This document shows, one piece after another, positions 2,506 to 14,631 of a stretch of DNA of 15,331 nucleotides (positions are counted from its first letter, which is position 1; each line of letters opens with the position of its first letter). Source of the stretch: a virus (Duplodnaviria > Heunggongvirae > Uroviricota > Caudoviricetes); IMG/VR virus record IMGVR_UViG_2718218172_000006; one strand, written 5' to 3'. Below the pieces are notes generated by a model. The model was not told the DNA's origin and did no database searches. It worked only from the letters and a program-made list of their open reading frames with translations. The position numbers and the translations under genes are program-made.

Positions 2506-2543
2506 GGGGAGCCCGCAGAACTCGGAAAAAATCGTACGCTAAG
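2506..2543. repeat. 38-bp terminal inverted repeat of a Tn21-family transposon (tnpA end)
   Basis: GGGGAGCCCGCAGAACTCGGAAAAAATCGTACGCTAAG at 2506-2543, close to the Tn501/Tn1721-type IR as I remember it. The tnpA stop codon (2539-2541) lies inside it, as is typical for this family. Confidence 0.8.
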
Positions 2544-5505
2544 GTTTTCCGAGCTGCCGCAGCGGCCTGAATTTCCCGTCTTCCAGCTTGCGGCTTTGCC
2601 GCCAAACGTAATCGCCGGTCAGGTTGATGTGCTCCCAGCCCAATGGCGAAAGGTATTGCAGTAACTCAGGATTAACTGGCTTGCCTGCCTCTTCTCGGGC
2701 CTGGGTCGCGCGCTCCAAGTACACGGTGTTCCACAACACGATGGCGGCCGTCACCAGGTTGAGGCCGCTGGCCCGGTAGCGCTGCTGCTCGAAACTCCGA
2801 TCCCTGATCTCGCCGAGGCGGTTGAAGAACACCGCCCTGGCCAGGGAGTTACGCGCCTCGCCCTTGTTCAATCCGGCATGCACGCGGCGACGCAGTTCCA
2901 CGCTTTGCAGCCAATCGAGGATGAACAGCGTGCGCTCGATCCGACCCAGCTCGCGCAGAGCCACGGCCAGGCCGTTCTGGCGCGGGTAGCTGCCAAGCTT
3001 GCGCAGCATCAGCGATGCGGTGACGGTGCCCTGCTTGATCGACGCGGCCAGCCGCAGAATCTCGTCCCAGTGAGCGCAGACGTGCTTGATGTTCAGGGTT
3101 CCGCCGAGCATTGGACGCAGCGTCGGGTAGTCTTGGACGCTATTGGGCACATACAACTTGGTTTCACCGAGGTCGCGGATGCGCGGCGCGAAGCGGAAGC
3201 CCAGCAGGTGCATCAGGGCGAAGACGTGATCGGTGAAGCCAGCGGTGTCGGTGTAGTGCTCCTCGATCCGCAGATCGGACTCGTGGTACAGCAGACCGTC
3301 GAGCACGTAGGTGGAATCACGCACGCCTACATTCACCACGCGGGTGCTGAACGGCGCGTACTGGTCAGAGATGTGGGTGTAGAACAGCCGTCCTGGCTCG
3401 CTACCGTACTTCGGGTTGACGTGGCCGGTGCTCTCGCCTTTACCGCCGGCACGGAAACGCTGGCCATCGGAGGATGAGGTGGTGCCGTCACCCCAGTTGG
3501 CGGCGAAGGCATGCCGGAACTGGCTGTTGACCAGCTCGGCCAGGGCCGTCGAGTAGGTTTCGTCACGGATGTGCCAGGCTTGCAACCAGGACAGCTTGGC
3601 GTAGGTCATGCCCGGACTCGACTCGGCCATTTTGGTCAGGCCGAGGTTGATGGCATCGCCCAGGATCGCCGTTAGCAGTAGCGTCCGGTCTTTCGCCTGT
3701 GCGCCATCCTTCAGGTGCGTGAAGTGGCGGGTGAAGCCCGTCCATTCATCCACATCCATCAGCAGCTCGGTGATCTTGATGCGCGGCAGTAGCTGGCTGG
3801 TCTGGTCGATCAGCGCCTGCGCGGTGTTGGGCACCGCGGAATCCAGCGGGGTGATTTTTAGCCCGGACTCGGTGAGGATGGCATCGGGTAGTTCGTTGTC
3901 CTTTGCCAGTCGGGTGACAGTGGCCAGCTGCTCGTCCAGCAGCTGCAAACGCTCTTCCAGGTACTGGTCGCTGTTCGGGTTGATCGCGAGTGGCAGCGCC
4001 TGTTCCCGCTTGAGTGCGGCGAATTTCTCGGGAGGCAGTAGGTAGTCATCGAAGTCGCGGAACTGCCGCGAGCCTTTGACCCAGATGTCGCCGGAGCGCA
4101 GCGCGTTCTTCAACTCGGACAAGGCGCAGATTTCGTAGAAGCGCCGGTCGATGCCTTCCGGGGTGATCACCAGCGGTTTCCAGCGCGGCTTGATGAAGGC
4201 GGTCGGTGCGTCGGAGGGCACCTTGCGCAGATTATCGGCATTCATCTCGCGTAGGGTCTGAACGGCATCCAGCACGGCTTGCGCTGCCGTCGCGGCTCGG
4301 AGCTGAAGCACCTCCAGAAAGGCTGGGGTGTAGCGGCGTAGCGTAGCGAAGTTCTCGCTGACCAGGTGCAGGTGGTCGAAGGCTTCCGGCCGGGCCAGCA
4401 GCTCGGCCTCAGTGACACTCTGGGTGAACTCGTCCCAGGGAATGACCGCCTCGATGGCGGCGAACGGATCGTCACCGGACTCTTTAGCGTCCAGCAGGGC
4501 CTGGCCGATCTTCGAGTACAGGCGCACCTTGTCATTGATCGCTTTGCCCTGCTTCTGGAACTGCTGCTGATGCTTGTGTTTCGCGCCACTGAACAGCTTG
4601 ACCAGGATGCGGTCGTGCAGATCAACCAGTTCATCGATCACGGTCGCGGTGCTTTCCAGTACCACGGCGACCAGCGTGGCATAGCGCCTCTCCGGTTCGA
4701 ACTTGCCGAGGTCTTGTGGCGTCATCTGCCCGCCCTCGCGGGCGAGCTTCAGCAATCGGTTCTGGTGGATGTGCCGGCCGAGGCTGTCGGGAAGGCCCAC
4801 CAGTTGGAAAATCTTCAGCCGCTCGATGTGCTCGATCATGTGCCGCGAGTTCGGCTTCAGCGGTGATTGCCGCAACCAGGTCAACCAAGTGCTGTTGCTG
4901 CCGGCCTTAATGGTGAGCAGTTCGTCGAGCTTGGCGTGATGCGATGGGTTCAACGGCTCGATCAGGGCGCGATAGACCCGCCGATTGGCGCGTGCAATGG
5001 CCTCCGAACACGCCCGGTCAATAACGCTCAGCGTCGGCAGGATGCGCCGCTTCTGGCGCAAGCTCTCCAGCGCCTGCCCGGCCAGCAGCAAGCCCTTGTC
5101 GGTCTGCTGGGCCAGCTCGGTCAACTCGCGCACCAGGGCGCGGAAGTCCGACAGACCGAACGGGGCCAGTTGCAGGTAGGTGCGCAGTTCCAGAGCGTGC
5201 TCGCGGCGGGTCACGTCGCGCTCACCGTACTTCGCCCAACTCGCGGGGTCGGCTTGGACTTGCTTGGCCACCCACTGGATCACGGGCTCGGGTAGCGCCG
5301 TGTCGTTGCCCAGCGCATAACCAGGGTAGCGCAGCAGGCAGAGCTGCACGGCGAAGCCGAGGCGGTTGCCATCGCCCCGCCGTTGACGGATCAGGGATAG
5401 GTCGGAGTCGTTGAAGGTGTAGTAGCGGATCAGGTCATCCTGGCTTTCTGGCAGCGCAAGCAGGGTGTCGCGCTCCGTAGCCGAGAGAATCGAGCGACGC
5501 GGCAT
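2539..5505 (-). CDS. tnpA: Tn3-superfamily (Tn21 subgroup) transposase TnpA, 988 aa
   Basis: 988-aa ORF starting [37 protein letters not shown]..., with conserved blocks I recall from Tn21/Tn501 TnpA (e.g. [41 protein letters not shown]). Length matches the family. Confidence 0.95.
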
Positions 5506-5508
5506 GGT

Positions 5509-6069
5509 TCAGTCGTCCGTGCGAAGGTACTGGTAGAGGGTTTCACGGCTGATGCCGAACTCGCGTGCGAGCTGAGCCTTCGGCTCGCCGGCAGCGGCCC
5601 GCTGCCGCAACGTGATGGCTTGATCGTCGGAGAGAGCTTTCTTGCGGCCCCGGTAAGCACCGCGCTGCTTGGCCAGGGCGATGCCCTCGCGCTGCCGCTC
5701 GCGGATCAGGGCGCGCTCGAACTCGGCAAAGGCCCCCATGACCGACAACATGAGGTTGGCCATGGGCGAGTCCTCGCCGGTGAACACCAACCCCTCCTTC
5801 AAGAACTCGATGCGCACGCCGCGCTTGGTCAGCCTTTGCACCAGACGGCGCAGATCGTCGAGGTTGCGCGCCAGGCGATCCATGCTGTGCACCACCACGG
5901 TATCGCCTTCGCGGACGAATCCGAGCATGGCTTCCAGCTGCGGGCGCTGGGTGTCCTTGCCCGAGGCCTTGTCGGTGAACAGCTTGCCGATCTCGACCTG
6001 CTCAAGTTGGCGTTCCGGGTTCTGGTCGTAACTGCTGACCCGAACGTAACCGATGCGTTGTCCCTGCAA
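5509..6069 (-). CDS. tnpR: serine recombinase (resolvase) TnpR
   Basis: The track gives 5509-6123 (204 aa), but the conserved resolvase N-terminus starts at QGQRIGYVRVSS. A TTG at 6067-6069 is preceded by GGAGG, giving a ~186-aa protein typical of Tn501/Tn1721 TnpR. The start is uncertain; the ATG at 6123 is the alternative. It sits 3 bp upstream of tnpA on the same strand. Confidence 0.88.
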   Translation of the reverse strand: MQGQRIGYVRVSSYDQNPERQLEQVEIGKLFTDKASGKDTQRPQLEAMLGFVREGDTVVVHSMDRLARNLDDLRRLVQRLTKRGVRIEFLKEGLVFTGEDSPMANLMLSVMGAFAEFERALIRERQREGIALAKQRGAYRGRKKALSDDQAITLRQRAAAGEPKAQLAREFGISRETLYQYLRTDD

Positions 6070-6260
6070 GATGCCTCCATAGGCTGGATGGGCGGTAGGG
6101 CTTACGTTGGTTTTTGGTTCCATTGCGCCCTAAGCCTTGAATTTGTCAGGTTGGAATCTATGACCTTGGCAAGCATGTGTCAAAGAATGTGAAAGCAGAC
6201 TCTATTCTGACGGCGCAGTGTCGTTTTCAGAAGACGGCTGCACTGAACGTCAGAAGCCGA
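6070..6260. promoter_or_regulatory. res (resolution) site region and tnpR promoter, approximate extent
   Basis: By position: in Tn21-family elements the three-subsite res region lies immediately upstream of tnpR. Sequence shows repeated TGTCA-containing dyads (TGTCAGGTTGG…, CATGTGTCAAAG…). Sub-site boundaries not determined. Confidence 0.45.
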
Positions 6261-6502: not shown

Positions 6503-6602
6503 NNNNNNNNNNNNNNNNNNNNNNNNNNNNNNNNNNNNNNNNNNNNNNNNNNNNNNNNNNNNNNNNNNNNNNNNNNNNNNNNNNNNNNNNNNNNNNNNNN
6601 NN
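6503..6602. other. assembly gap (100 N)
   Basis: Run of 100 n characters. Confidence 0.99.
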
Positions 6603-6607
6603 GTCTC

Positions 6608-8313: not shown

Positions 8314-10162
8314 AGTTAACATTACAAGATATAAGTAATGGACGCACTCCCAATTAGTCTATTTAAATCGCCACGAGTTTAACTGACAACCCATGATCAA
8401 TTATGAATTGCAACTATTTCTGTAGTCACTTTTGTGGGGACAGTCCACAAAACTGCCAACTTCCGCTTCTTGCTCTTAGCGGACATTAGCATAGGCTATT
8501 TACCATAACGCCTCATTACGCGCACCGCCCAGACTGACTCAGCGCGTTTCTGGCATATCCCCGGTAAAACAAGTAACAAACCACCCGAAAATGAACACCA
8601 GAAACGCGACTTAAGAATCTACCCTATGAATGGATATGCACTCAACCGAATCGATCTTGGTTTCAATCTTTTTTATCGGGATCAGGCTTCTTTTTAGGTA
8701 ACTTCGGGGGCTTAACTTGCTGATGACTTTGCGTTCGGCGCGTAAGCCAGGGATGGTCAGCTTTAGGTTTAACATAGTATTTTGAGCGTAAATCAATACG
8801 GGCATTATCCACTCGTTCATGGACACTCTTTTCATCATCCAGTGGTATAGGCTCCGGGCCATCAACATACTTTTCCCAGCCCAGCGCTTTCCCGTCATAC
8901 AGAACGTTAATTTCACCGTCAAAGTTCTCGCATACAGTAACAACCGAATGCCTAAGTCGATATCCCCGGCCCTCACTGCGTACCTGAAACGCACTGCTTT
9001 TGTACTGGAAAGTGAGATTTTTAGACAGAACGCGCTTCGCCTGTAGGCTGAAGATATAACCCAGTTCCTCTTCAGAATGGTGCACATCAAGATGAGCATT
9101 ATCAGTAGTACGAGGCGACGTAGCGAACCGGTTGTTATAGGCTTCAATAAAGGTCGGCAACCATGCATTTGCTGTTTCAATATCACTGATATTCTGAAGC
9201 CGCATTTCTTTGACCAGCCTGTCCTGTAGTGTCTGATTGGCGCGCTCTACCCGCCCTTTTGCCTGCGGGCTGTTGGCATGGATTGGCTCGATGCCCAGTG
9301 TCTTTATCGCACGAGTGAACTGGGTCAGCTCACCTTCCCGCTCTGGGTTATTTACCCTGAATATACTGTGTCTATCAGAGTAGAGAGCGAGCGGTACGCC
9401 ATGATCATTAAGGTAACCCCGGAGGGTTTCCATGTAAGCCCGGGTTGTTTCAGCAGGCACAAAACGCAACGCCATCAACGCACTGGTGGCATCATCAATG
9501 AAAACGATCAGTGTACATCTGGGGCCTCGATTTTCAAACCAGTCATGAGGTGAGCCATCAATCTGGATCAGTTCACCGTAAGATGGTCGTCGCATGCGGC
9601 GTTGATATATACGGGCAATTTTACGACGGCGTTCACGCCATAACCCCTCTTCTATCATCCACTTTCTGAGAGTTTCAACGGATAAAGATAAACCGTGTAT
9701 CTCGCGCAATTTTTCGCACGCAAACGTAGGTCCAAAATCAGCGTAACGGCCTTTGAGGAGTGAAATTACTGTTGCTCTGAATTCAGTAGAAAAGGAATTA
9801 TTAGGACGCTTTCCACGTCGGTGGGAAACCAGACCAGAAGGCCCTTCATTTCTATACCGTTGCACCAGACGTTTAACCTGCCGAATAGAAATGCCAATGC
9901 GTGCCGCAGCTTGTTCCTGAATAATCTGAAGTCGGTGGAGTTCCTTATGACTCATCGTAACAGTCTCTTTGATCATGAAAAATCCCCCAGAGAATTGTCT
10001 GGGGACATTTTAGAATGGTTCAAAGGGGACATTACAGCTTGGTGTTAACAATAGCCTGCTTCTCCGTGCCTTTCGGCACGTAAGAGGCTAACCTACATGT
10101 GTCTAGCATGAAATTGGCCTCAGATTAATGTTAAGCGTCTTGCAGGACGCGTAATGTTAACT
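8314..10162 (-). mobile_element. insertion sequence carrying the DDE transposase; ends uncertain
   Basis: The only candidate terminal repeats I could find by eye are a perfect 12-bp inverted pair, AGTTAACATTAC at 8314-8325 and GTAATGTTAACT at 10151-10162. The true ends may lie inside this span. No target-site duplication identified. Confidence 0.3.
8663..9976 (-). CDS. DDE transposase, rve/integrase-core type (IS481- or ISNCY-like), 437 aa
   Basis: 437-aa ORF with an N-terminal helix-turn-helix region (IGISIRQVKRLVQRYRNEG) and a D…D…E arrangement typical of rve-fold transposases (LIQIDGSPHDW … LALYSDRHSIF … KGRVERANQTLQ). Lysine-rich C-terminal tail. Exact IS family not identified. Confidence 0.8.
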   Translation of the reverse strand: MIKETVTMSHKELHRLQIIQEQAAARIGISIRQVKRLVQRYRNEGPSGLVSHRRGKRPNNSFSTEFRATVISLLKGRYADFGPTFACEKLREIHGLSLSVETLRKWMIEEGLWRERRRKIARIYQRRMRRPSYGELIQIDGSPHDWFENRGPRCTLIVFIDDATSALMALRFVPAETTRAYMETLRGYLNDHGVPLALYSDRHSIFRVNNPEREGELTQFTRAIKTLGIEPIHANSPQAKGRVERANQTLQDRLVKEMRLQNISDIETANAWLPTFIEAYNNRFATSPRTTDNAHLDVHHSEEELGYIFSLQAKRVLSKNLTFQYKSSAFQVRSEGRGYRLRHSVVTVCENFDGEINVLYDGKALGWEKYVDGPEPIPLDDEKSVHERVDNARIDLRSKYYVKPKADHPWLTRRTQSHQQVKPPKLPKKKPDPDKKD

Positions 10163-10310
10163 GGGGCTTTTCTCTATCTGCCGTTGGTGTCCATGCCCGA
10201 GGCAGATAGCCTCAAGCACCCGCAGTCATTCTACTTAACTAAGATTTCCCCGCAAACCGTTTTTGTCCAGCACAGTAAATATCCAACTAAACCAATGGAG
10301 TTCGCTGTAT

Positions 10311-10490
10311 TTACCGCCAGTATTCAATGCACATGACCGCCATGAACACCCCTAAAAAAAGGGCATTTATATATCCAAATATTAATATCAAAACATCAAC
10401 TTTTTCCATATACCTTGCTGTGAAGATGATGGGCATACATGATGCGAACAACCAGAACGCAACAAACAAAAACTGCAATGCGTTTTTCAT
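10311..10490 (-). CDS. small two-helix membrane protein, 59 aa (track ORF 10311-10529 trimmed to the ATG with a ribosome-binding site)
   Basis: ATG at 10488-10490 is preceded by GTAGGAGGAATA-ATG, a near-consensus Shine-Dalgarno. Product MKNALQFLFVAFWLFASCMPIIFTARYMEKVDVLILIFGYINALFLGVFMAVMCIEYWR has two hydrophobic helices. No family recognised. Confidence 0.5.
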   Translation of the reverse strand: MKNALQFLFVAFWLFASCMPIIFTARYMEKVDVLILIFGYINALFLGVFMAVMCIEYWR

Positions 10491-10674
10491 TATTCCTCCT
10501 ACAATCAATGTGCAATTACATTTAAACACACCTCAATTTGGCCGGACATATAAATATCTAAACCAGAAAAAATCACTTACATAGCGTTACAAACTCTTTA
10601 GTCTAAAGGTTCATCGTAAAACATTCCCCATACTTATCAGTCCGTTCCGCGCCAGGTAGCTCATTGCCTTATCT

Positions 10675-10704
10675 GGCAACCTGTAATCAGGTTTCCGCTT
10701 TTTC
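10675..10704 (+). terminator. candidate intrinsic terminator (plus strand)
   Basis: GGCAACCTG-taat-CAGGTTTCC (9-bp stem, one mismatch) followed by GCTTTTT. No convincing plus-strand gene upstream, so the terminated transcript is unknown. Confidence 0.3.
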
Positions 10705-11642
10705 AGTTGGCTGGTCGTTTAACCGACATAGTTAATCCATTAATCTAGTTGCCGGATGTTGGTGGATTTTCGCGTTTTAGTTGTTCATAAAAGTGCACAG
10801 CTTTAACCAGTTCTTCTGATGTAACTGGGACTGGTGAGGCAGTGAATAAGGCCTGAATTTGATAGTTCGGCCTGTCGTTACAATCCTCTTTTTTCGGTAC
10901 ATATTTCCAGTCACCAGACCACTACTTCCCCTGAAAGTCCGTAACGCCTTTTTTCACGTAGCGATATCGCCATGCCACTGGTTTTGCTTGCCCCGCCGTT
11001 TCATGCCCTTCCTGATAATTAATCTCGCTCATTCATCGCCCCACTCATCACAATATGCTTCGACCGGAGTTTTTCCCGCTTCATAGTCATCACGCTAGGA
11101 TTCGACATCAGCAGCACTTCCACCGCGTAACTCACCATAGTCCATTAATAGTTCATCCCGCTCTTCAAAACTGATGTTATATTTAGCTGAACAAAAATCA
11201 GCCACTTTGTTCTTCCTCATCGTCTTTTATTTCGTGGTATGAGTAATTGCAGTAGTTAAAGAAAATTTCTTATGCTCCGTCATGAATTTCCTCAGGTGTT
11301 GCGTCATCGTCCACTTCGAATACATCCTCAAAATCTCCACCAGCTATTCCCGTTTCAATAATAATTTTGAACTTTCGCATTTCACTACCGCCCTTTCGGG
11401 CGGCCTCCTGATGTTCTGAGGGTGCAGAAATCCATCCGGTTAAGGATTAAATTTTATTTACAGAACTGAATTTAATTATTCAGATATACGTATCTGTAGC
11501 CTTACGAATCTACTCACTGGATGCCTCTTTCATAAAAATAATCCAGTGGGTTTTATCGTTTTTTCCCTGTTCGTTGACAGATAACAGGTTTTCTGTCTGT
11601 CAGTGCCAGAATCTGGCTTACCGGTATTTGCGTTTCATTCCA

Positions 11643-11999
11643 TTAAAAAATCAGAACGCCGTGCGGCCTCAACACCCGAAAGGCTTCTTTAAATCTCTGT
11701 CGCGAATCATCACGCCAGGCATCTTTATTCAGCCGTCCATATTTCTTTCCCATCCAGGCGTTATCACCAACACTCTCAAGATGCGGAGGGTCTAATACAA
11801 CCATCGAAAAAGATGCGTCTGCAAATGATAATGCACGAAAATCTGCGATAATGTCAGGGCTGATAATCAAGCGTCTCCCATTGCGTAATGTGTATCCTTC
11901 TTTTCTGATATCGCTGAATATCGCCCGTTCGTCAGACTTATCGAACCAGAACATGCGGCTGCCACAGCACATATCAAGAATGGTTGCCGGTGCACTCAC
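11643..11999 (-). CDS. DNA N6-adenine methyltransferase-like protein, short (118 aa), possibly truncated
   Basis: An N-terminal SAM-binding-like motif (LDMCCGSRMFWFDK) is followed by a DPPH motif (VVLDPPHLE), resembling the DPPY/DPPW catalytic motif of amino-methyltransferases. The GTG start overlaps the stop of the upstream gene by 4 bp. The frame stays open for 29 more codons beyond the TAA stop, suggesting a nonsense mutation or an unusually short enzyme. Confidence 0.5.
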   Translation of the reverse strand: MSAPATILDMCCGSRMFWFDKSDERAIFSDIRKEGYTLRNGRRLIISPDIIADFRALSFADASFSMVVLDPPHLESVGDNAWMGKKYGRLNKDAWRDDSRQRFKEAFRVLRPHGVLIF

Positions 12000-12418
12000 T
12001 GCGCCACGTCCTGAAAATTACCCTGATAGAAAGCCAGTATGCGCTGCATAACTTCGCTCTTCCGGCACTCGCGACAGATTATGTTTAGGCGACTGTCGTA
12101 GCGACGTATTTCTCCGTCAGGTGATGACCAGATAAGGTCCGGATCAACCACAGCAGGTTTCTTCACCTTTGCCCTCGAGAGTTTTTTGCGGGCGTTTTGC
12201 CAGTCCTTACGCGCCTGTTCAGAGGGGAATAACCCGTAGCCGGAGTTGTATACATCGCCACTGGCTACCAGCTCTCTGGCAAGAACGCTCATCAGATATC
12301 TAGTCGCACCTGTTTTAGCTTCCAGTTGCCGTAACGTCTCACGGCCGCTCTGGCGCACGAGTTCCACCACCTGCCATTTAATTTTTTCCCGCTCTTCTTG
12401 TGTAAAAACTTTTGCCAC
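11996..12418 (-). CDS. hypothetical prophage protein with a putative helix-turn-helix (140 aa)
   Basis: 140-aa track ORF with a GTG start. It has an HTH-like segment (ETLRQLEAKTGATRYLMSVLAREL) and a basic central region, and is translationally coupled to the downstream methyltransferase-like gene. Family not recognised. Confidence 0.55.
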   Translation of the reverse strand: MAKVFTQEEREKIKWQVVELVRQSGRETLRQLEAKTGATRYLMSVLARELVASGDVYNSGYGLFPSEQARKDWQNARKKLSRAKVKKPAVVDPDLIWSSPDGEIRRYDSRLNIICRECRKSEVMQRILAFYQGNFQDVAQ

Positions 12419-12458
12419 AAGTCCCCCTTAAAATTACCTCATGACCTGAAATCAACAC

Positions 12459-13424
12459 TTATCCTCTGAAACCAGGCGGAATTTCTGTATCCGGTTCAGA
12501 AATATGATTAACACAACGCTGTACAGGTGAACGTCCCAGGCGGATGACCAGTTCGTCCCATTTTTCGCGGAGCTTTGACGGGCTCATGATGTTTTTTACC
12601 CAGAATGGATCTCGCTGAACCCGACCAAACATTTCGCAAATTTGTCTGTGGCTTCTGCCATCCAGCATCCGCATTGTGCGCACGTCATTGGCCCAGGCAG
12701 TCCAGTTAGGCTCTTTTGGTCGCATGATCTCGCCATCATCACTGGCTGCCTGTTCGTAGAGACCCACGATCCGCCCCCAGATCCACTGCGCACACGCCAA
12801 ATCCTCCCTGCTACCCCACTGGCGTTTTTTCGCACTAAACACAACCGCGTCGGAGTTCCGGGTTAAAAAATCCTGTTCAGTCGTCTGCGGGTCCGGTTGC
12901 GAAGCTTCCGGACGAAAAGTGTTTTTATTCTCTGTAGTAATCTCTGTTGTATTCTCTGTAAGATCATCAGGCCATTTTGACCCGATGACATTGGGTCGTT
13001 TTGAACCAATGGAGCGTTTCATTTTGACCTCTTCCATCGTGTCATTTTGACCTGATGGAGCGGCGCATTTTGAACCGATGGATTCGCTCAATTTGCCACC
13101 ATCTAAAAGCTCGCTCCCATAGTTGATCGTGTAGAAATTGGTCATATCGCGCTTTGATTTATTGAGCTTTTCACAACGCAAAAGCCCCAGCGTTTTCAGA
13201 CTTGCAAACGCGCGCTTTAACGTTGACTCTGACCAGAATGGGAACTGTTCCAGCCATTGTTCCGTTGTGTTATAAATCCAGCGAACACCATCACATTCCA
13301 TGCCGGAGTTGGTATCTCTCAACCAGTAGTGCAGTTGTTGCAAAACAATGGCTTCGTTTAAGCCAATTTTCATTGCCAGCTGCGTGTTTATAACCAGTGG
13401 GCGTTCAGCAAAAAGAAGGCTCAT
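12459..13424 (-). CDS. lambda O-like replication initiator (replisome organiser) with an embedded candidate origin
   Basis: Track ORF 12459-13478 trimmed to the first ATG (13422-13424). It sits where a lambdoid O gene would, downstream of the Cro-like dicC. The N-terminal region looks like a DNA-binding domain, and the central linker is encoded by five direct DNA repeats followed by an A+T-rich stretch, as in ori-lambda. This is a functional inference; similarity not verified. Confidence 0.6.
   Translation of the reverse strand: MSLLFAERPLVINTQLAMKIGLNEAIVLQQLHYWLRDTNSGMECDGVRWIYNTTEQWLEQFPFWSESTLKRAFASLKTLGLLRCEKLNKSKRDMTNFYTINYGSELLDGGKLSESIGSKCAAPSGQNDTMEEVKMKRSIGSKRPNVIGSKWPDDLTENTTEITTENKNTFRPEASQPDPQTTEQDFLTRNSDAVVFSAKKRQWGSREDLACAQWIWGRIVGLYEQAASDDGEIMRPKEPNWTAWANDVRTMRMLDGRSHRQICEMFGRVQRDPFWVKNIMSPSKLREKWDELVIRLGRSPVQRCVNHISEPDTEIPPGFRG
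12973..13083. repeat. five iteron-like direct repeats (~23-bp period) inside the O-like gene
   Basis: Plus strand: cATTTTGACCCGATGaca (12973), cGTTTTGAACCAATGGAG (12997), tcATTTTGACCtcttcca (13019), tcATTTTGACCTGATGGAG (13042), gcATTTTGAACCGATGGAt (13065). The adjacent A+T-rich 12901-12960 contains ATTCTCTGTA twice. Confidence 0.6.
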
Positions 13425-13926
13425 AATTCCATCCAGCTTTTTGTTGGTATTGCTGTCGATACGCAAGTTTGAAAGCAATTGCTTTTTCTATAAGTTCGTC
13501 AGTTTCACGATCCACTACGGCAGGATCAGCAAAAAGCAGTCCGGACTCCACCACATCGCCATATTCTTTGTTTAACCCGGCGATCATGCACGTGATGCTT
13601 TTTCCGTCAGTAATTTCACGATACAACCTGAAATCATTAATCCGGATAGCCTCCATAATTGCAGGCACTAGCGCCGTGAACTTTTCACGCTTATCCCTGG
13701 TGTCGATAGCCTTCCAGCGTTCAAATATCTTCACTCGATTAACGCCAAGCGCTCGCTGATCAATCGCGCCACCTTCATATGTGACACGCTGAACATCGAT
13801 GTTCGGGCGCTCTTTCAAAGCCCAGAATGCTTCAGTGATTAATATCGTCGCCTGCTCCTGTGTCATTCCTGGTCGACATATCCAGGCATCCAGAGCCTCA
13901 CGAGCCTGTTCAGGAGTGATTTTCAT
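13405..13926 (-). CDS. hypothetical prophage early protein (173 aa)
   Basis: 173-aa ORF starting at ATG 13924-13926. It overlaps the dicC stop by 17 bp and the O-like gene start by ~20 bp. It sits where a lambdoid cII-like gene would; no family recognised. Confidence 0.5.
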   Translation of the reverse strand: MKITPEQAREALDAWICRPGMTQEQATILITEAFWALKERPNIDVQRVTYEGGAIDQRALGVNRVKIFERWKAIDTRDKREKFTALVPAIMEAIRINDFRLYREITDGKSITCMIAGLNKEYGDVVESGLLFADPAVVDRETDELIEKAIAFKLAYRQQYQQKAGWNYEPSFC

Positions 13927-14140
13927 TGTTCAACCGCCCCGCCCGCTTCGTCTTACGATATTCATCATAAACTTTGGGATCATACTGAAGCTCCCCGCCA
14001 GATGCCTCCTGTAGACGCATCGCGCGACCTTCGGGAACTAAATCCCCTTTCCAGCTATAAAGCGAAGCCAAACGAATACCTGCTGCTTGTGCAAGTTTTG
14101 TTTTTGAACCGAAATACAAAAGAGCGTCAGTTTTAAGCAT
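13910..14140 (-). CDS. dicC: DicC (Cro-like repressor), 76 aa
   Basis: 76-aa ORF MLKTDALLYFGSKTKLAQAAGIRLASLYSWKGDLVPEGRAMRLQEASGG…, transcribed divergently from dicA. Recognised as E. coli DicC; length matches. Confidence 0.88.
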   Translation of the reverse strand: MLKTDALLYFGSKTKLAQAAGIRLASLYSWKGDLVPEGRAMRLQEASGGELQYDPKVYDEYRKTKRAGRLNNENHS

Positions 14141-14223: not shown

Positions 14224-14631
14224 ATGGAAACAAAAAATTTAACTATCGGCGAACGCATCAGGTATCGTCGGAAAAACCTCAAACACACCCAAAGGTCTCT
14301 TGCTAAAGCCCTGAAAATCTCCCATGTGTCTGTATCACAATGGGAACGGGGTGATAGTGAACCTACAGGGAAGAACCTTTTTGCCCTCAGCAAAGTATTG
14401 CAATGCTCACCAACATGGATTCTATTTGGCGATGAAGACAAGCAACCAACACCACCTGTTGAGAAGCCAGTTGCCTTATCCCCCAAAGAACTAGAGCTCC
14501 TTGAGCTGTTTAATGCACTGCCAGAATCAGAACAGGATACCCAGCTCGCCGAAATGCGAGCTCGAGTAAAAAACTTCAATAAACTCTTTGAAGAATTACT
14601 AAAAGCCCGTCAGCGGACAAATAAAAGATAA
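14224..14631 (+). CDS. dicA: DicA (XRE/cI-type HTH repressor), 135 aa
   Basis: 135-aa ORF METKNLTIGERIRYRRKNLKHTQRSLAKALKISHVSVSQWERGDSEPTGKNLFALSKVLQCSPTWILF…, recognised as E. coli DicA; HTH_XRE motif evident. Confidence 0.95.
   Translation: METKNLTIGERIRYRRKNLKHTQRSLAKALKISHVSVSQWERGDSEPTGKNLFALSKVLQCSPTWILFGDEDKQPTPPVEKPVALSPKELELLELFNALPESEQDTQLAEMRARVKNFNKLFEELLKARQRTNKR

Follow-up and report, generated by a model that had tools for sequence, protein, structure and literature searches.

A candidate replication origin within a chimeric, O-like initiator gene of a Qin-like lambdoid prophage

Where would a Qin-like lambdoid prophage begin its replication, and how might it obtain a helicase when no loader gene follows its initiator? 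We addressed this question for a 15,331-nucleotide stretch from a virus of the Caudoviricetes (IMG/VR record IMGVR_UViG_2718218172_000006; hereafter, the window), in which a minus-strand gene at 12459–13424 encodes a protein of 321 amino acids. We read this gene as the replication initiator and place a candidate origin in its linker-coding DNA, a reading to which sequence comparison gives a probability of roughly 0.8. The call is supported by the anatomy of the repeats, homology of the C-terminal domain, the predicted fold of the N-terminal domain, selection at synonymous sites, and wide recurrence among relatives. As an origin, the module is ordinary. It is a variant rather than a plain member of the lambda O family because it combines another DNA-binding domain, a phased and conserved 12-mer, the lack of a loader gene, and a C-terminal tail of the type found on the host primosomal protein DnaT. 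In the literature that we found on the DnaT tail, YdaU/YdaV, replication modules, and Eru typing of Stx phages, there is no account of the origin or of the partner of the tail.

The initiator gene and its embedded repeats

The minus strand of 12459–13478 is a single open reading frame (ORF), and the original prediction had extended the gene to a TTG codon at 13478. We favor the ATG at 13424 as the likely start codon, because all homologues and three phage records begin at this position (MSLLFAERP...); the stop codon occupies 12459–12461. The same coding sequence is annotated in the phages PhiR42_1, HannyBb, and mEp460. Identity is 100% to PhiR42_1 (from ECOR13) and to Escherichia coli ATCC 8739, 98.5% to HannyBb, and 97.4% to mEp460_ev081. 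A total of 4284 homologues were retrieved, and a full-length copy is present in 1849 of 5426 complete E. coli genomes (34%), mostly under the label "hypothetical protein." Copies that are 96–100% identical to the E. coli gene also appear in metagenome-assembled genome (MAG) bins labeled Bacillota, Veillonella parvula, and Collinsella (L004, L006, and L059); these contigs are most likely mis-binned. In Klebsiella phages, megablast matches are confined to the N-terminal domain and the repeat array.

The original prediction described five direct repeats of ~23 bp in the middle of the gene, and repeat searches recover them with starts at 12965, 12989, 13012, 13035, and 13058 (spacing 24/23/23/23). 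Alignment with relatives adds a sixth copy at 13081–13103, which is degenerate here but well formed in those relatives. The resulting iteron array (12965–13103, minus strand) has the core GGTCAAAATG and, in gene order after the degenerate unit, consists of 13058–13080, 13035–13057, 13012–13034, 12989–13011, and 12965–12987. Iterons are expected as at least three direct repeats in helical phase on one strand, and six units at 23–24 bp, or roughly two turns of the helix, are found. Tandem Repeats Finder (TRF) reports a period-23 array at 12999–13082 and a period-12 array at 12929–12960. The window contains three exact copies of the 10-mer GGTCAAAATG, all on the gene strand and within 12973–13052; allowing up to one mismatch gives four matches, all in the array, where 1.2 would be expected in the window. 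Units 2, 4, and 5 display dyad symmetry at seven to eight of nine positions (CATCrGGyC-AAAAT-GrCCyGATG).

Only 4 bp separate the iterons from three phased 12-mers, (T/A)ACAGAGA(A/T)TA(C/A), at 12925–12960 on the minus strand, which we consider a candidate unwinding element. The A+T-rich stretch with two copies of ATTCTCTGTA noted in the original prediction is present as far as the copies go, but these are part of the three phased units, and "A+T-rich stretch" undersells what is a phased, sequence-specific 12-mer. Adjacent matches to ACAGAGAWTAC at up to one mismatch number three, against 0.28 expected in the window. The GC fraction is 0.33–0.38 over 12900–12979 and falls to 0.33 at 12920–12979, and adenine makes up 0.50 of the sense strand across the 12-mers. 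By nearest-neighbor stability, no 40-mer of the gene is less stable than that at 12914–12964, which ranks at the 98.9th percentile of the whole window, so an easily melted tract does adjoin the repeats. An inverted repeat, GTCCGG(11 nt)CCGGAC, lies at 12891–12913, gene-downstream of the 12-mers; lambda has its palindrome at the corresponding position, with a left arm, TCAGAGAAT, that is similar to the 12-mer unit. There are no DnaA boxes within 12400–13500, and an Rfam scan returned no match in the initiator gene, the sole match in the window being sok at 10050–10221.

Side-by-side comparison with lambda bears out the layout that had been proposed, in which iterons and then an A-rich tract lie in the linker-coding part of the gene. 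Both origins sit within the initiator gene at the same position of the early right operon, and each has four to six dyad iterons, spaced by 20–24 bp, that share the central A-tract TCAAAAyG. The A-rich unwinding tract is on the gene-sense side in each, with the same strand asymmetry. In ori-lambda, four annotated iterons with starts 20, 24, and 23 bp apart lie in the middle of O and are followed by the A-rich tract and then the palindrome; the iteron dyad, TCCCTCAAAACGAGGGA, is like that of units 2, 4, and 5. The differences are also clear: six iterons here rather than four, a phased and conserved 12-mer, the lack of a P gene, an N-terminal domain unrelated by sequence, and a DnaT-type tail in place of the lambda-type tail (DWIYGVDL).

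The protein itself is a chimera. Its RepA_N/DnaD-type winged helix leads into a disordered linker, whose DNA forms the candidate origin, and the protein ends with a C-terminal domain of the lambda O type and a short tail. The protein search proposed as a check on the original prediction returned PHROG 391, "replication initiation O-like" (E 1.1e-91, residues 17–321 on profile positions 11–298 of 298). The label "O-like" therefore stands for the profile match and the C-terminal half; the N-terminal domain is not the PF04492 domain of lambda O. The C-terminal domain (about residues 195–297; 12534–12842, minus strand) was recognized by BLASTP, which aligned residues 147–294 with residues 135–270 of lambda O (from J02459) at 34% identity over 148 amino acids (E 1e-26). 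The shared pattern is WG..EDL..A.W...PN...WAN(D/E)(I/V)R.M...DGR.HR..C..F......FW..N..SP.KLR.KW. Pfam returned nothing for the initiator protein even at E 10, PF04492 included, and Pfam plus NCBIfam searches of the whole protein and of each half gave only the DnaT tail as a useful match.

The N-terminal domain (residues 1–105; 13110–13424, minus strand) is the presumed iteron binder. An AlphaFold2 (AF2) model of the N-terminal 112 residues, built with 89 diverse homologues from a profile search, reached a pLDDT of 86 and a pTM of 0.77 and predicts a winged helix with two β-hairpins. Among known structures, it is best matched by RepA, a bona fide iteron-binding initiator, and the fold is also like those of the DnaD N-terminal domain and Bacillus subtilis DnaB. 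As modeled, the domain is thus a winged helix with extended β-hairpins like those in RepA and in the N-terminal domain of DnaD, and its nearest counterparts are initiators of the RepA_N and DnaD types. Unlike in fold, there is no detectable sequence similarity to the RepA_N plasmid initiators of Gram-positive bacteria (pSK41/pTZ2162 RepA; PDB 4pta, 4pql, and 5kbj) and no RepA_N Pfam match, and those proteins differ in C-terminal domain, hosts, and replicon type. Among 30 relatives, four had sub-threshold DnaD_N matches (best E 0.029) and none matched RepA_N. A diverged lambda O N-terminal domain was considered and rejected, as hhalign with a 30-sequence profile gave a probability of 0.05% and BLASTP produced no N-terminal alignment. 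An initial full-length AF2 model, built from a shallow alignment of 11 sequences, was poor (pLDDT 53.5); it served solely to assess linker disorder and places residues 102–177 in a disordered segment.

Constraint on the repeats and their spread across phyla

The iterons begin at gene nucleotides 322, 345, 368, 391, 414, and 438, in frames 0, 2, 1, 0, 2, and 2, and encode DGGKLSES, SIGSKCAAP, PSGQNDTM, EEVKMKRS, SIGSKRPNV, and VIGSKWPDD, respectively. We aligned the codons of ten relatives of the same iteron type and scored how often residues that are identical and degenerate also share the same codon. This frequency is 0.51 in the N-terminal domain (amino acid identity 0.78), 0.85 in the iterons (0.62), 0.96 in the 12-mers (0.75), and 0.47 in the C-terminal domain (0.35). 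Conservation of synonymous sites is thus highest where protein conservation is low, at 0.85–0.96 in the iterons and 12-mers against 0.47–0.51 in the flanking domains. By codon comparison, this shows that both elements are under selection as DNA. The original prediction had argued for conservation at the DNA level and had suggested a comparison with synonymous drift; the three reading frames and the value of 0.85 in the iterons versus 0.51 in the N-terminal domain agree with it. Codon choice was also counted in 12-mer repeats recognized purely from their peptide pattern ([TS]E.[TS] at four-residue intervals). Glutamate is encoded by GAG in 98/98 cases, versus 320/678 elsewhere in the same genes, and the first threonine by ACA in 95/95, versus 185/720 elsewhere. 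At several Firmicute and other loci, the first 12-mer spacing is 11 bp, which places the same motif in another reading frame.

Relatives were collected by scanning one genome per species with two N-domain peptides (whose own conservation is therefore by construction), yielding 80 loci from Enterobacterales, Pseudomonas, Acinetobacter, Photobacterium, Staphylococcus, Bacillus, Lactobacillus, and Clostridia. Nearly all carry arrays with a period of 22–24 bp, ~320–450 nt into the gene. The iteron sequence is lineage-specific (GGTCAAAATG, GGACAATCTGTCC, GGGCAAATTGCAC, GATCAAAATGATCC, and others), its core differing between N-domain lineages as expected if the two co-vary. Across the 74 complete genes, TRF detected an array in 41, at least two phased CARAGA units were found in 56, and both were present in 35, where the units begin a median of 12 bp after the array. 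The order of N-terminal domain, iterons of period 22–24, and 12-mers therefore recurs in 35–56 of these 74 genes, whose range extends from Enterobacteria to Staphylococcus, Lactobacillus, and Clostridia. Staphylococcus phage 42E follows the same plan, with GGACAAAATG at period 22 and then CAGAGACTA-type units.

The ACAGAGA(A/T/C)TAC unit is near-identical in all of these phyla. Given this constancy, the fixed GAG and ACA codons, and the retention of the motif in another frame, the comparisons identify the tract as a sequence-specific DNA element rather than merely an A+T-rich one. In NZ_CP028741.1 (H42), a 37-nt megablast match of 97% covers window positions 12929–12965, the 12-mer tract only, within an otherwise unrelated "DNA-binding protein" gene of a different E. 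coli strain; this fits a tract common to different initiator genes. A passage of PMC7466680, citing Learn 1997, reports that lambda O binds the single-stranded A+T tract. By analogy, contact of the 12-mer tract by the conserved N-terminal domain is one possibility.

In a mechanism modeled on lambda O and RepA_N, the N-terminal domain would dimerize on the dyad iterons, with their central A-tracts, and the DNA would be wrapped into a complex resembling the O-some. Strain from the wrapped complex could then melt the adjoining 12-mer tract, while early transcription from the cro-side promoter would run through the origin.

Several observations weigh against this origin reading. Of the six iterons, two or three have no dyad symmetry. 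The A+T content of the tract is no more than moderate (GC 0.33–0.38), and many intergenic stretches of the window are equally unstable. By sequence, the N-terminal domain resembles neither lambda O nor any Pfam family, and the case for binding, unwinding, and replication at this locus is built from sequence. Finally, the prophage carries an insertion sequence (IS) and a Tn3-type insertion and hence may not be inducible.

The last point leads to the alternative that survives best, although we consider it improbable: a fossil module whose origin anatomy was kept by recent descent and which no longer fires in a degraded Qin-like prophage. The window does contain an IS-type transposase (8663–9976), a Tn3-family transposon (2539–6123), and a truncated methyltransferase gene, and the whole module has been lost from K-12 Qin. 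Against this, the ORF is intact and 97–100% identical to the module of the isolated phages HannyBb, mEp460, and PhiR42_1, it is full length in the 1849 E. coli genomes, and synonymous sites are under selection across divergent relatives. Such decay would in any case bear on one copy, not on the identity of the element.

A somewhat less probable alternative casts the protein not as the origin-binding initiator but as a DnaD-like adaptor or an accessory of the helicase loader. The true origin would then lie elsewhere, and the repeats would serve in initiator titration (copy control), in exclusion of related phages, or as a regulatory binding array. Relatives are labeled "DnaD-like helicase loader" in several phage records and in PHROGs, the resemblance of the N-domain fold to the DnaD N-terminal domain and B. 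subtilis DnaB points the same way, and an inhibition phenotype is known from cloned lambda ori iterons (PMC3349717). As in lambda, however, a conserved tract of the unwinding type always follows the array. In structure, the N-terminal domain is best matched by an iteron-binding initiator, the C-terminal domain is that of lambda O, and the early operon holds no other iteron cluster or initiator candidate. We therefore retain the reading as initiator and origin. The proposal that the repeats merely encode a flexible, repetitive linker (SIGSK..., TTEN/TTEI) with no cis role is effectively refuted: the linker is predicted to be disordered and SIGSK and TTE(N/I) do recur in it, but a period of 23 is not divisible by 3, so that six units in three frames give unrelated peptides, synonymous sites are conserved though amino acid identity is below that of the folded domain, and GAG and ACA are fixed in 12-mers whose 11-bp-spaced copies fall in another frame.

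The C-terminal tail and helicase loading

No P-like or DnaC-like gene follows the initiator, as the original prediction had stated. In the lambda O family, a P-type loader would be expected directly downstream; here, the next gene encodes a DUF977 protein. The annotated early regions of PhiR42_1 and HannyBb likewise contain no P, DnaC-like, or DnaB gene (in HannyBb, from this gene to Q), and the plaque-forming phages HannyBb and mEp460 carry the module at 97–98% identity without a loader gene. The loading partner had been called unclear, and the tail of the protein now offers a concrete lead.

The tail (residues 301–321, VQRCVNHISEPDTEIPPGFRG; 12462–12524, minus strand) matches the flexible tail of host DnaT (primosomal protein I). 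Over the last 20 residues, 14 are identical to the E. coli DnaT C terminus (70%, E 9e-8), with the shared pattern ...VN.(I/V)SEPD..IPPGFRG; the DnaT sequence used was verified against 9zbt_D, and the tail matches 2ru8, 6aep, and 9zbt_D in the PDB. Similarity ends there. The NCBIfam DnaT model NF002770 scores 16.2 bits against a cutoff of 201, with only residues 302–321 aligned, and without its tail the lambda-O-type domain has no similarity to the DnaT C-terminal domain. Treating the whole C-terminal half as a DnaT-like domain was rejected, since a PDB profile search found nothing and hhalign gave a probability of 0.5%; at this sensitivity, only the tail is common.

Among the N-domain relatives, the tail is found on at least three unrelated C-terminal domains. 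We annotated downstream clusters with Pfam and tallied loading genes over the three ORFs after each initiator. A gene for DnaB, a DnaC-like protein, or lambda P is present there in 0/22 loci with a DnaT-type tail versus 29/53 loci with other tails (Fisher p = 2.7e-6); the 22 loci are all from Enterobacterales or obviously mis-binned MAGs. A lambda-type tail, HWNSPEAWENTL, goes with a PF06992 P gene downstream, and an "SGFSEQDYG..CNW" tail with DnaC-like and DnaB genes. At seven loci (L007, L014, L027, L029, L034, L038, and L039; gene ends at ~3850–3950 in locus coordinates), the tail sorts with the downstream gene, whatever the type of C-terminal domain.

When the host DnaT tail was compared with phage genomes, it matched only the C termini of temperate-phage initiators of Escherichia, Salmonella, Klebsiella, and Shigella, including Rac YdaU and the O proteins of Gifsy-1 and Gifsy-2. 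Six were inspected: a DnaC-like gene follows directly in four (Rac YdaV, Gifsy-2, POCJ13, and 666R9), and a loader is absent from two (SPN1S and BUCT711). The host gene order dnaT-dnaC is thus mirrored by Rac-like phages, in which a tail-bearing protein precedes a DnaC-type loader. The modules of Rac (YdaU-YdaV), Gifsy-1/2 (O plus a DnaC-like protein), and Shigella phage POCJ13 (gp16-gp17) are, like the present one, enterobacterial temperate-phage initiators with the same tail and with DUF977/LygF further downstream. They differ in having other N-terminal domains and a DnaC-like loader (plus DUF1627) directly after the initiator, whereas the gene studied here leads straight to DUF977.

Viral contigs extend this pattern. 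ORFs ending in ...IPPGFRG-stop include 73 initiator-like proteins in at least ten N-terminal clusters; downstream of these lies a DnaC-like gene in 30, no loader in 38, no downstream DNA in 5, and lambda P or DnaB in 0. An identical 320-residue initiator (MSSKLHGLVWEG...IPPGFRG) occurs both with (L105, L112, and L124) and without (L106, L113, and L155) a DnaC-like plus DUF1627 pair before DUF977, and the phage-borne DnaC paralogue therefore looks dispensable. A rule that the DnaT tail implies no phage loader, which fitted the 0/22 loci, was overturned by Rac, Gifsy-2, POCJ13, and many viral contigs. The rule that survives fits all of the sequence data: in roughly 140 related loci, a DnaT-type tail is accompanied either by a DnaC-like gene or by no loader at all, and in no case by lambda P or a phage DnaB. 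Where the phage gene is missing, DnaC-type loading would presumably be supplied by the host.

The IPPGFRG tail might then recruit host DnaB-DnaC, directly or via host DnaT, in place of a phage P or DnaC-like protein of the kind found in relatives. Judged from the distribution of tails and downstream genes, we give recruitment of DnaB-DnaC by the tail slightly less than an even chance. Some points count against this step. "No loader" refers to three downstream ORFs and to BLAST against our own reference set, and the association counts ignore phylogeny. Passages of PMC5778457, PMC5314882 (citing Szymanski 2013), and PMC4132743, which describe the DnaT tail as a flexible segment of 18–20 residues, assign it a role in trimerization and cooperative single-stranded DNA binding. 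A 2026 preprimosome paper favors the DnaT N-terminal domain as the recruiter of DnaB/DnaC while stating that the route of recruitment "remains unknown" (PMC13377028). As far as the literature that we found goes, the tail as an adaptor for the DnaC route is a new idea, partly at odds with that proposal, and we advance it tentatively.

A link between O-like proteins and DnaT is already in print, as the DnaT C-terminal motif was described in the domesticated, O-like dopC (Brezellec et al. 2017, PMC5509034). DopC of Cellvibrionales and Oceanospirillales resembles our initiator in being an O-like protein with this motif. It is unlike it in being chromosomal, without iterons, and paired with a P-like gene, whereas the present gene is phage-borne, has iterons, and lacks P. 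The dnaC gene is itself regarded as a domesticated phage gene (PMC5109545).

Operon context and implications

The initiator occupies the third position of an early right operon that runs Cro/DicC-like, YdaT/CII-like, initiator, and DUF977, with a methyltransferase fragment beyond. The Cro/DicC-like gene (13910–14140, minus strand; Pfam P22_Cro) is the first of this rightward operon through the candidate origin, and a cI/DicA-like repressor gene (14224–14631, plus strand; Pfam HTH_3 and Phage_CI_repr) diverges from it. The YdaT/CII-like gene (13405–13926, minus strand; Pfam YdaT_toxin, PHROG 163) overlaps the start of the initiator gene by 20 nt. In the place of a loader gene stands the DUF977/LygF ("Ren-like") gene (11996–12418, minus strand; Pfam DUF977 5e-29, PHROG 142). 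The original prediction gave this protein a length of 140 residues and called it a helix-turn-helix protein; the Pfam match makes it DUF977.

The module was also said to be absent from K-12 Qin, and alignment agrees. Identity between K-12 Qin and the window is 100% up to position 8847, and the match resumes at 13647, which indicates that Qin lacks the module through one clean 4.8-kb deletion of 8848–13646. The deleted segment takes with it the IS, the hok/sok region, the methyltransferase fragment, lygF, the initiator with its candidate origin, and the 3′ part of the YdaT-like gene, of which K-12 ydfX is the stump. Its sok antisense RNA is full length (10050–10221, minus strand; Rfam RF01794, 104 bits) and implies a second hok/sok-type locus within the segment absent from K-12. 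The IS-type transposase ORF (8663–9976, minus strand) contains HTH_32 and rve_3, and the methyltransferase ORF (11643–11999, minus strand) covers only profile positions 52–165 of 229; both are signs of decay in this prophage copy. Elsewhere in the window, a Tn3-family transposase (2539–5505, minus strand; PF01526, 6e-155) and a resolvase (5509–6123, minus strand) are bracketed by two runs of 100 N (2137–2236 and 6503–6602), and homology to K-12 resumes exactly at 6603.

On this analysis, the name of initiator can be assigned to a mostly "hypothetical," Pfam-less gene of one-third of complete E. coli genomes, and its candidate origin is mapped to about 180 bp. Two features could interest replication specialists, namely the constancy of the 12-mer across phyla and the correspondence between tail and loader. 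The first is a natural experiment in which iterons, C-terminal domains, and loading partners have been swapped, while the nucleotide sequence of one 12-bp unit has remained constant from Enterobacteria to Firmicutes; such constancy is not explained by a plain A+T-rich DNA unwinding element. As to the second, tails sort by loading route: lambda-type tails with P, DnaT-type tails with a DnaC-like gene or none, and others with DnaC-like plus DnaB. This sorting suggests, as a simple hypothesis open to testing, a way in which phages without a loader gene could obtain the host helicase, and it bears on the role of the conserved DnaT tail in replication restart.

Two linked proposals, that the IPxGFRG tail is a portable docking peptide for DnaC-type loading and that phased ACAGAGAnTAC is an element read by the winged-helix domain, seem to us rather unlikely. 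If true, host DnaT and at least ten unrelated enterobacterial phage initiator families would have a (D/Y)xxIPxGFRG tail in common, and the host dnaT-dnaC operon would be a domesticated phage pair of initiator tail plus loader. DnaT would then hand over DnaB-DnaC to the restart fork via its tail and not via its N-terminal domain. Likewise, ACAGAGAnTAC would be read, for example, on the melted strand and would constitute an ancient, cross-phylum unwinding code rather than a generic A+T tract.

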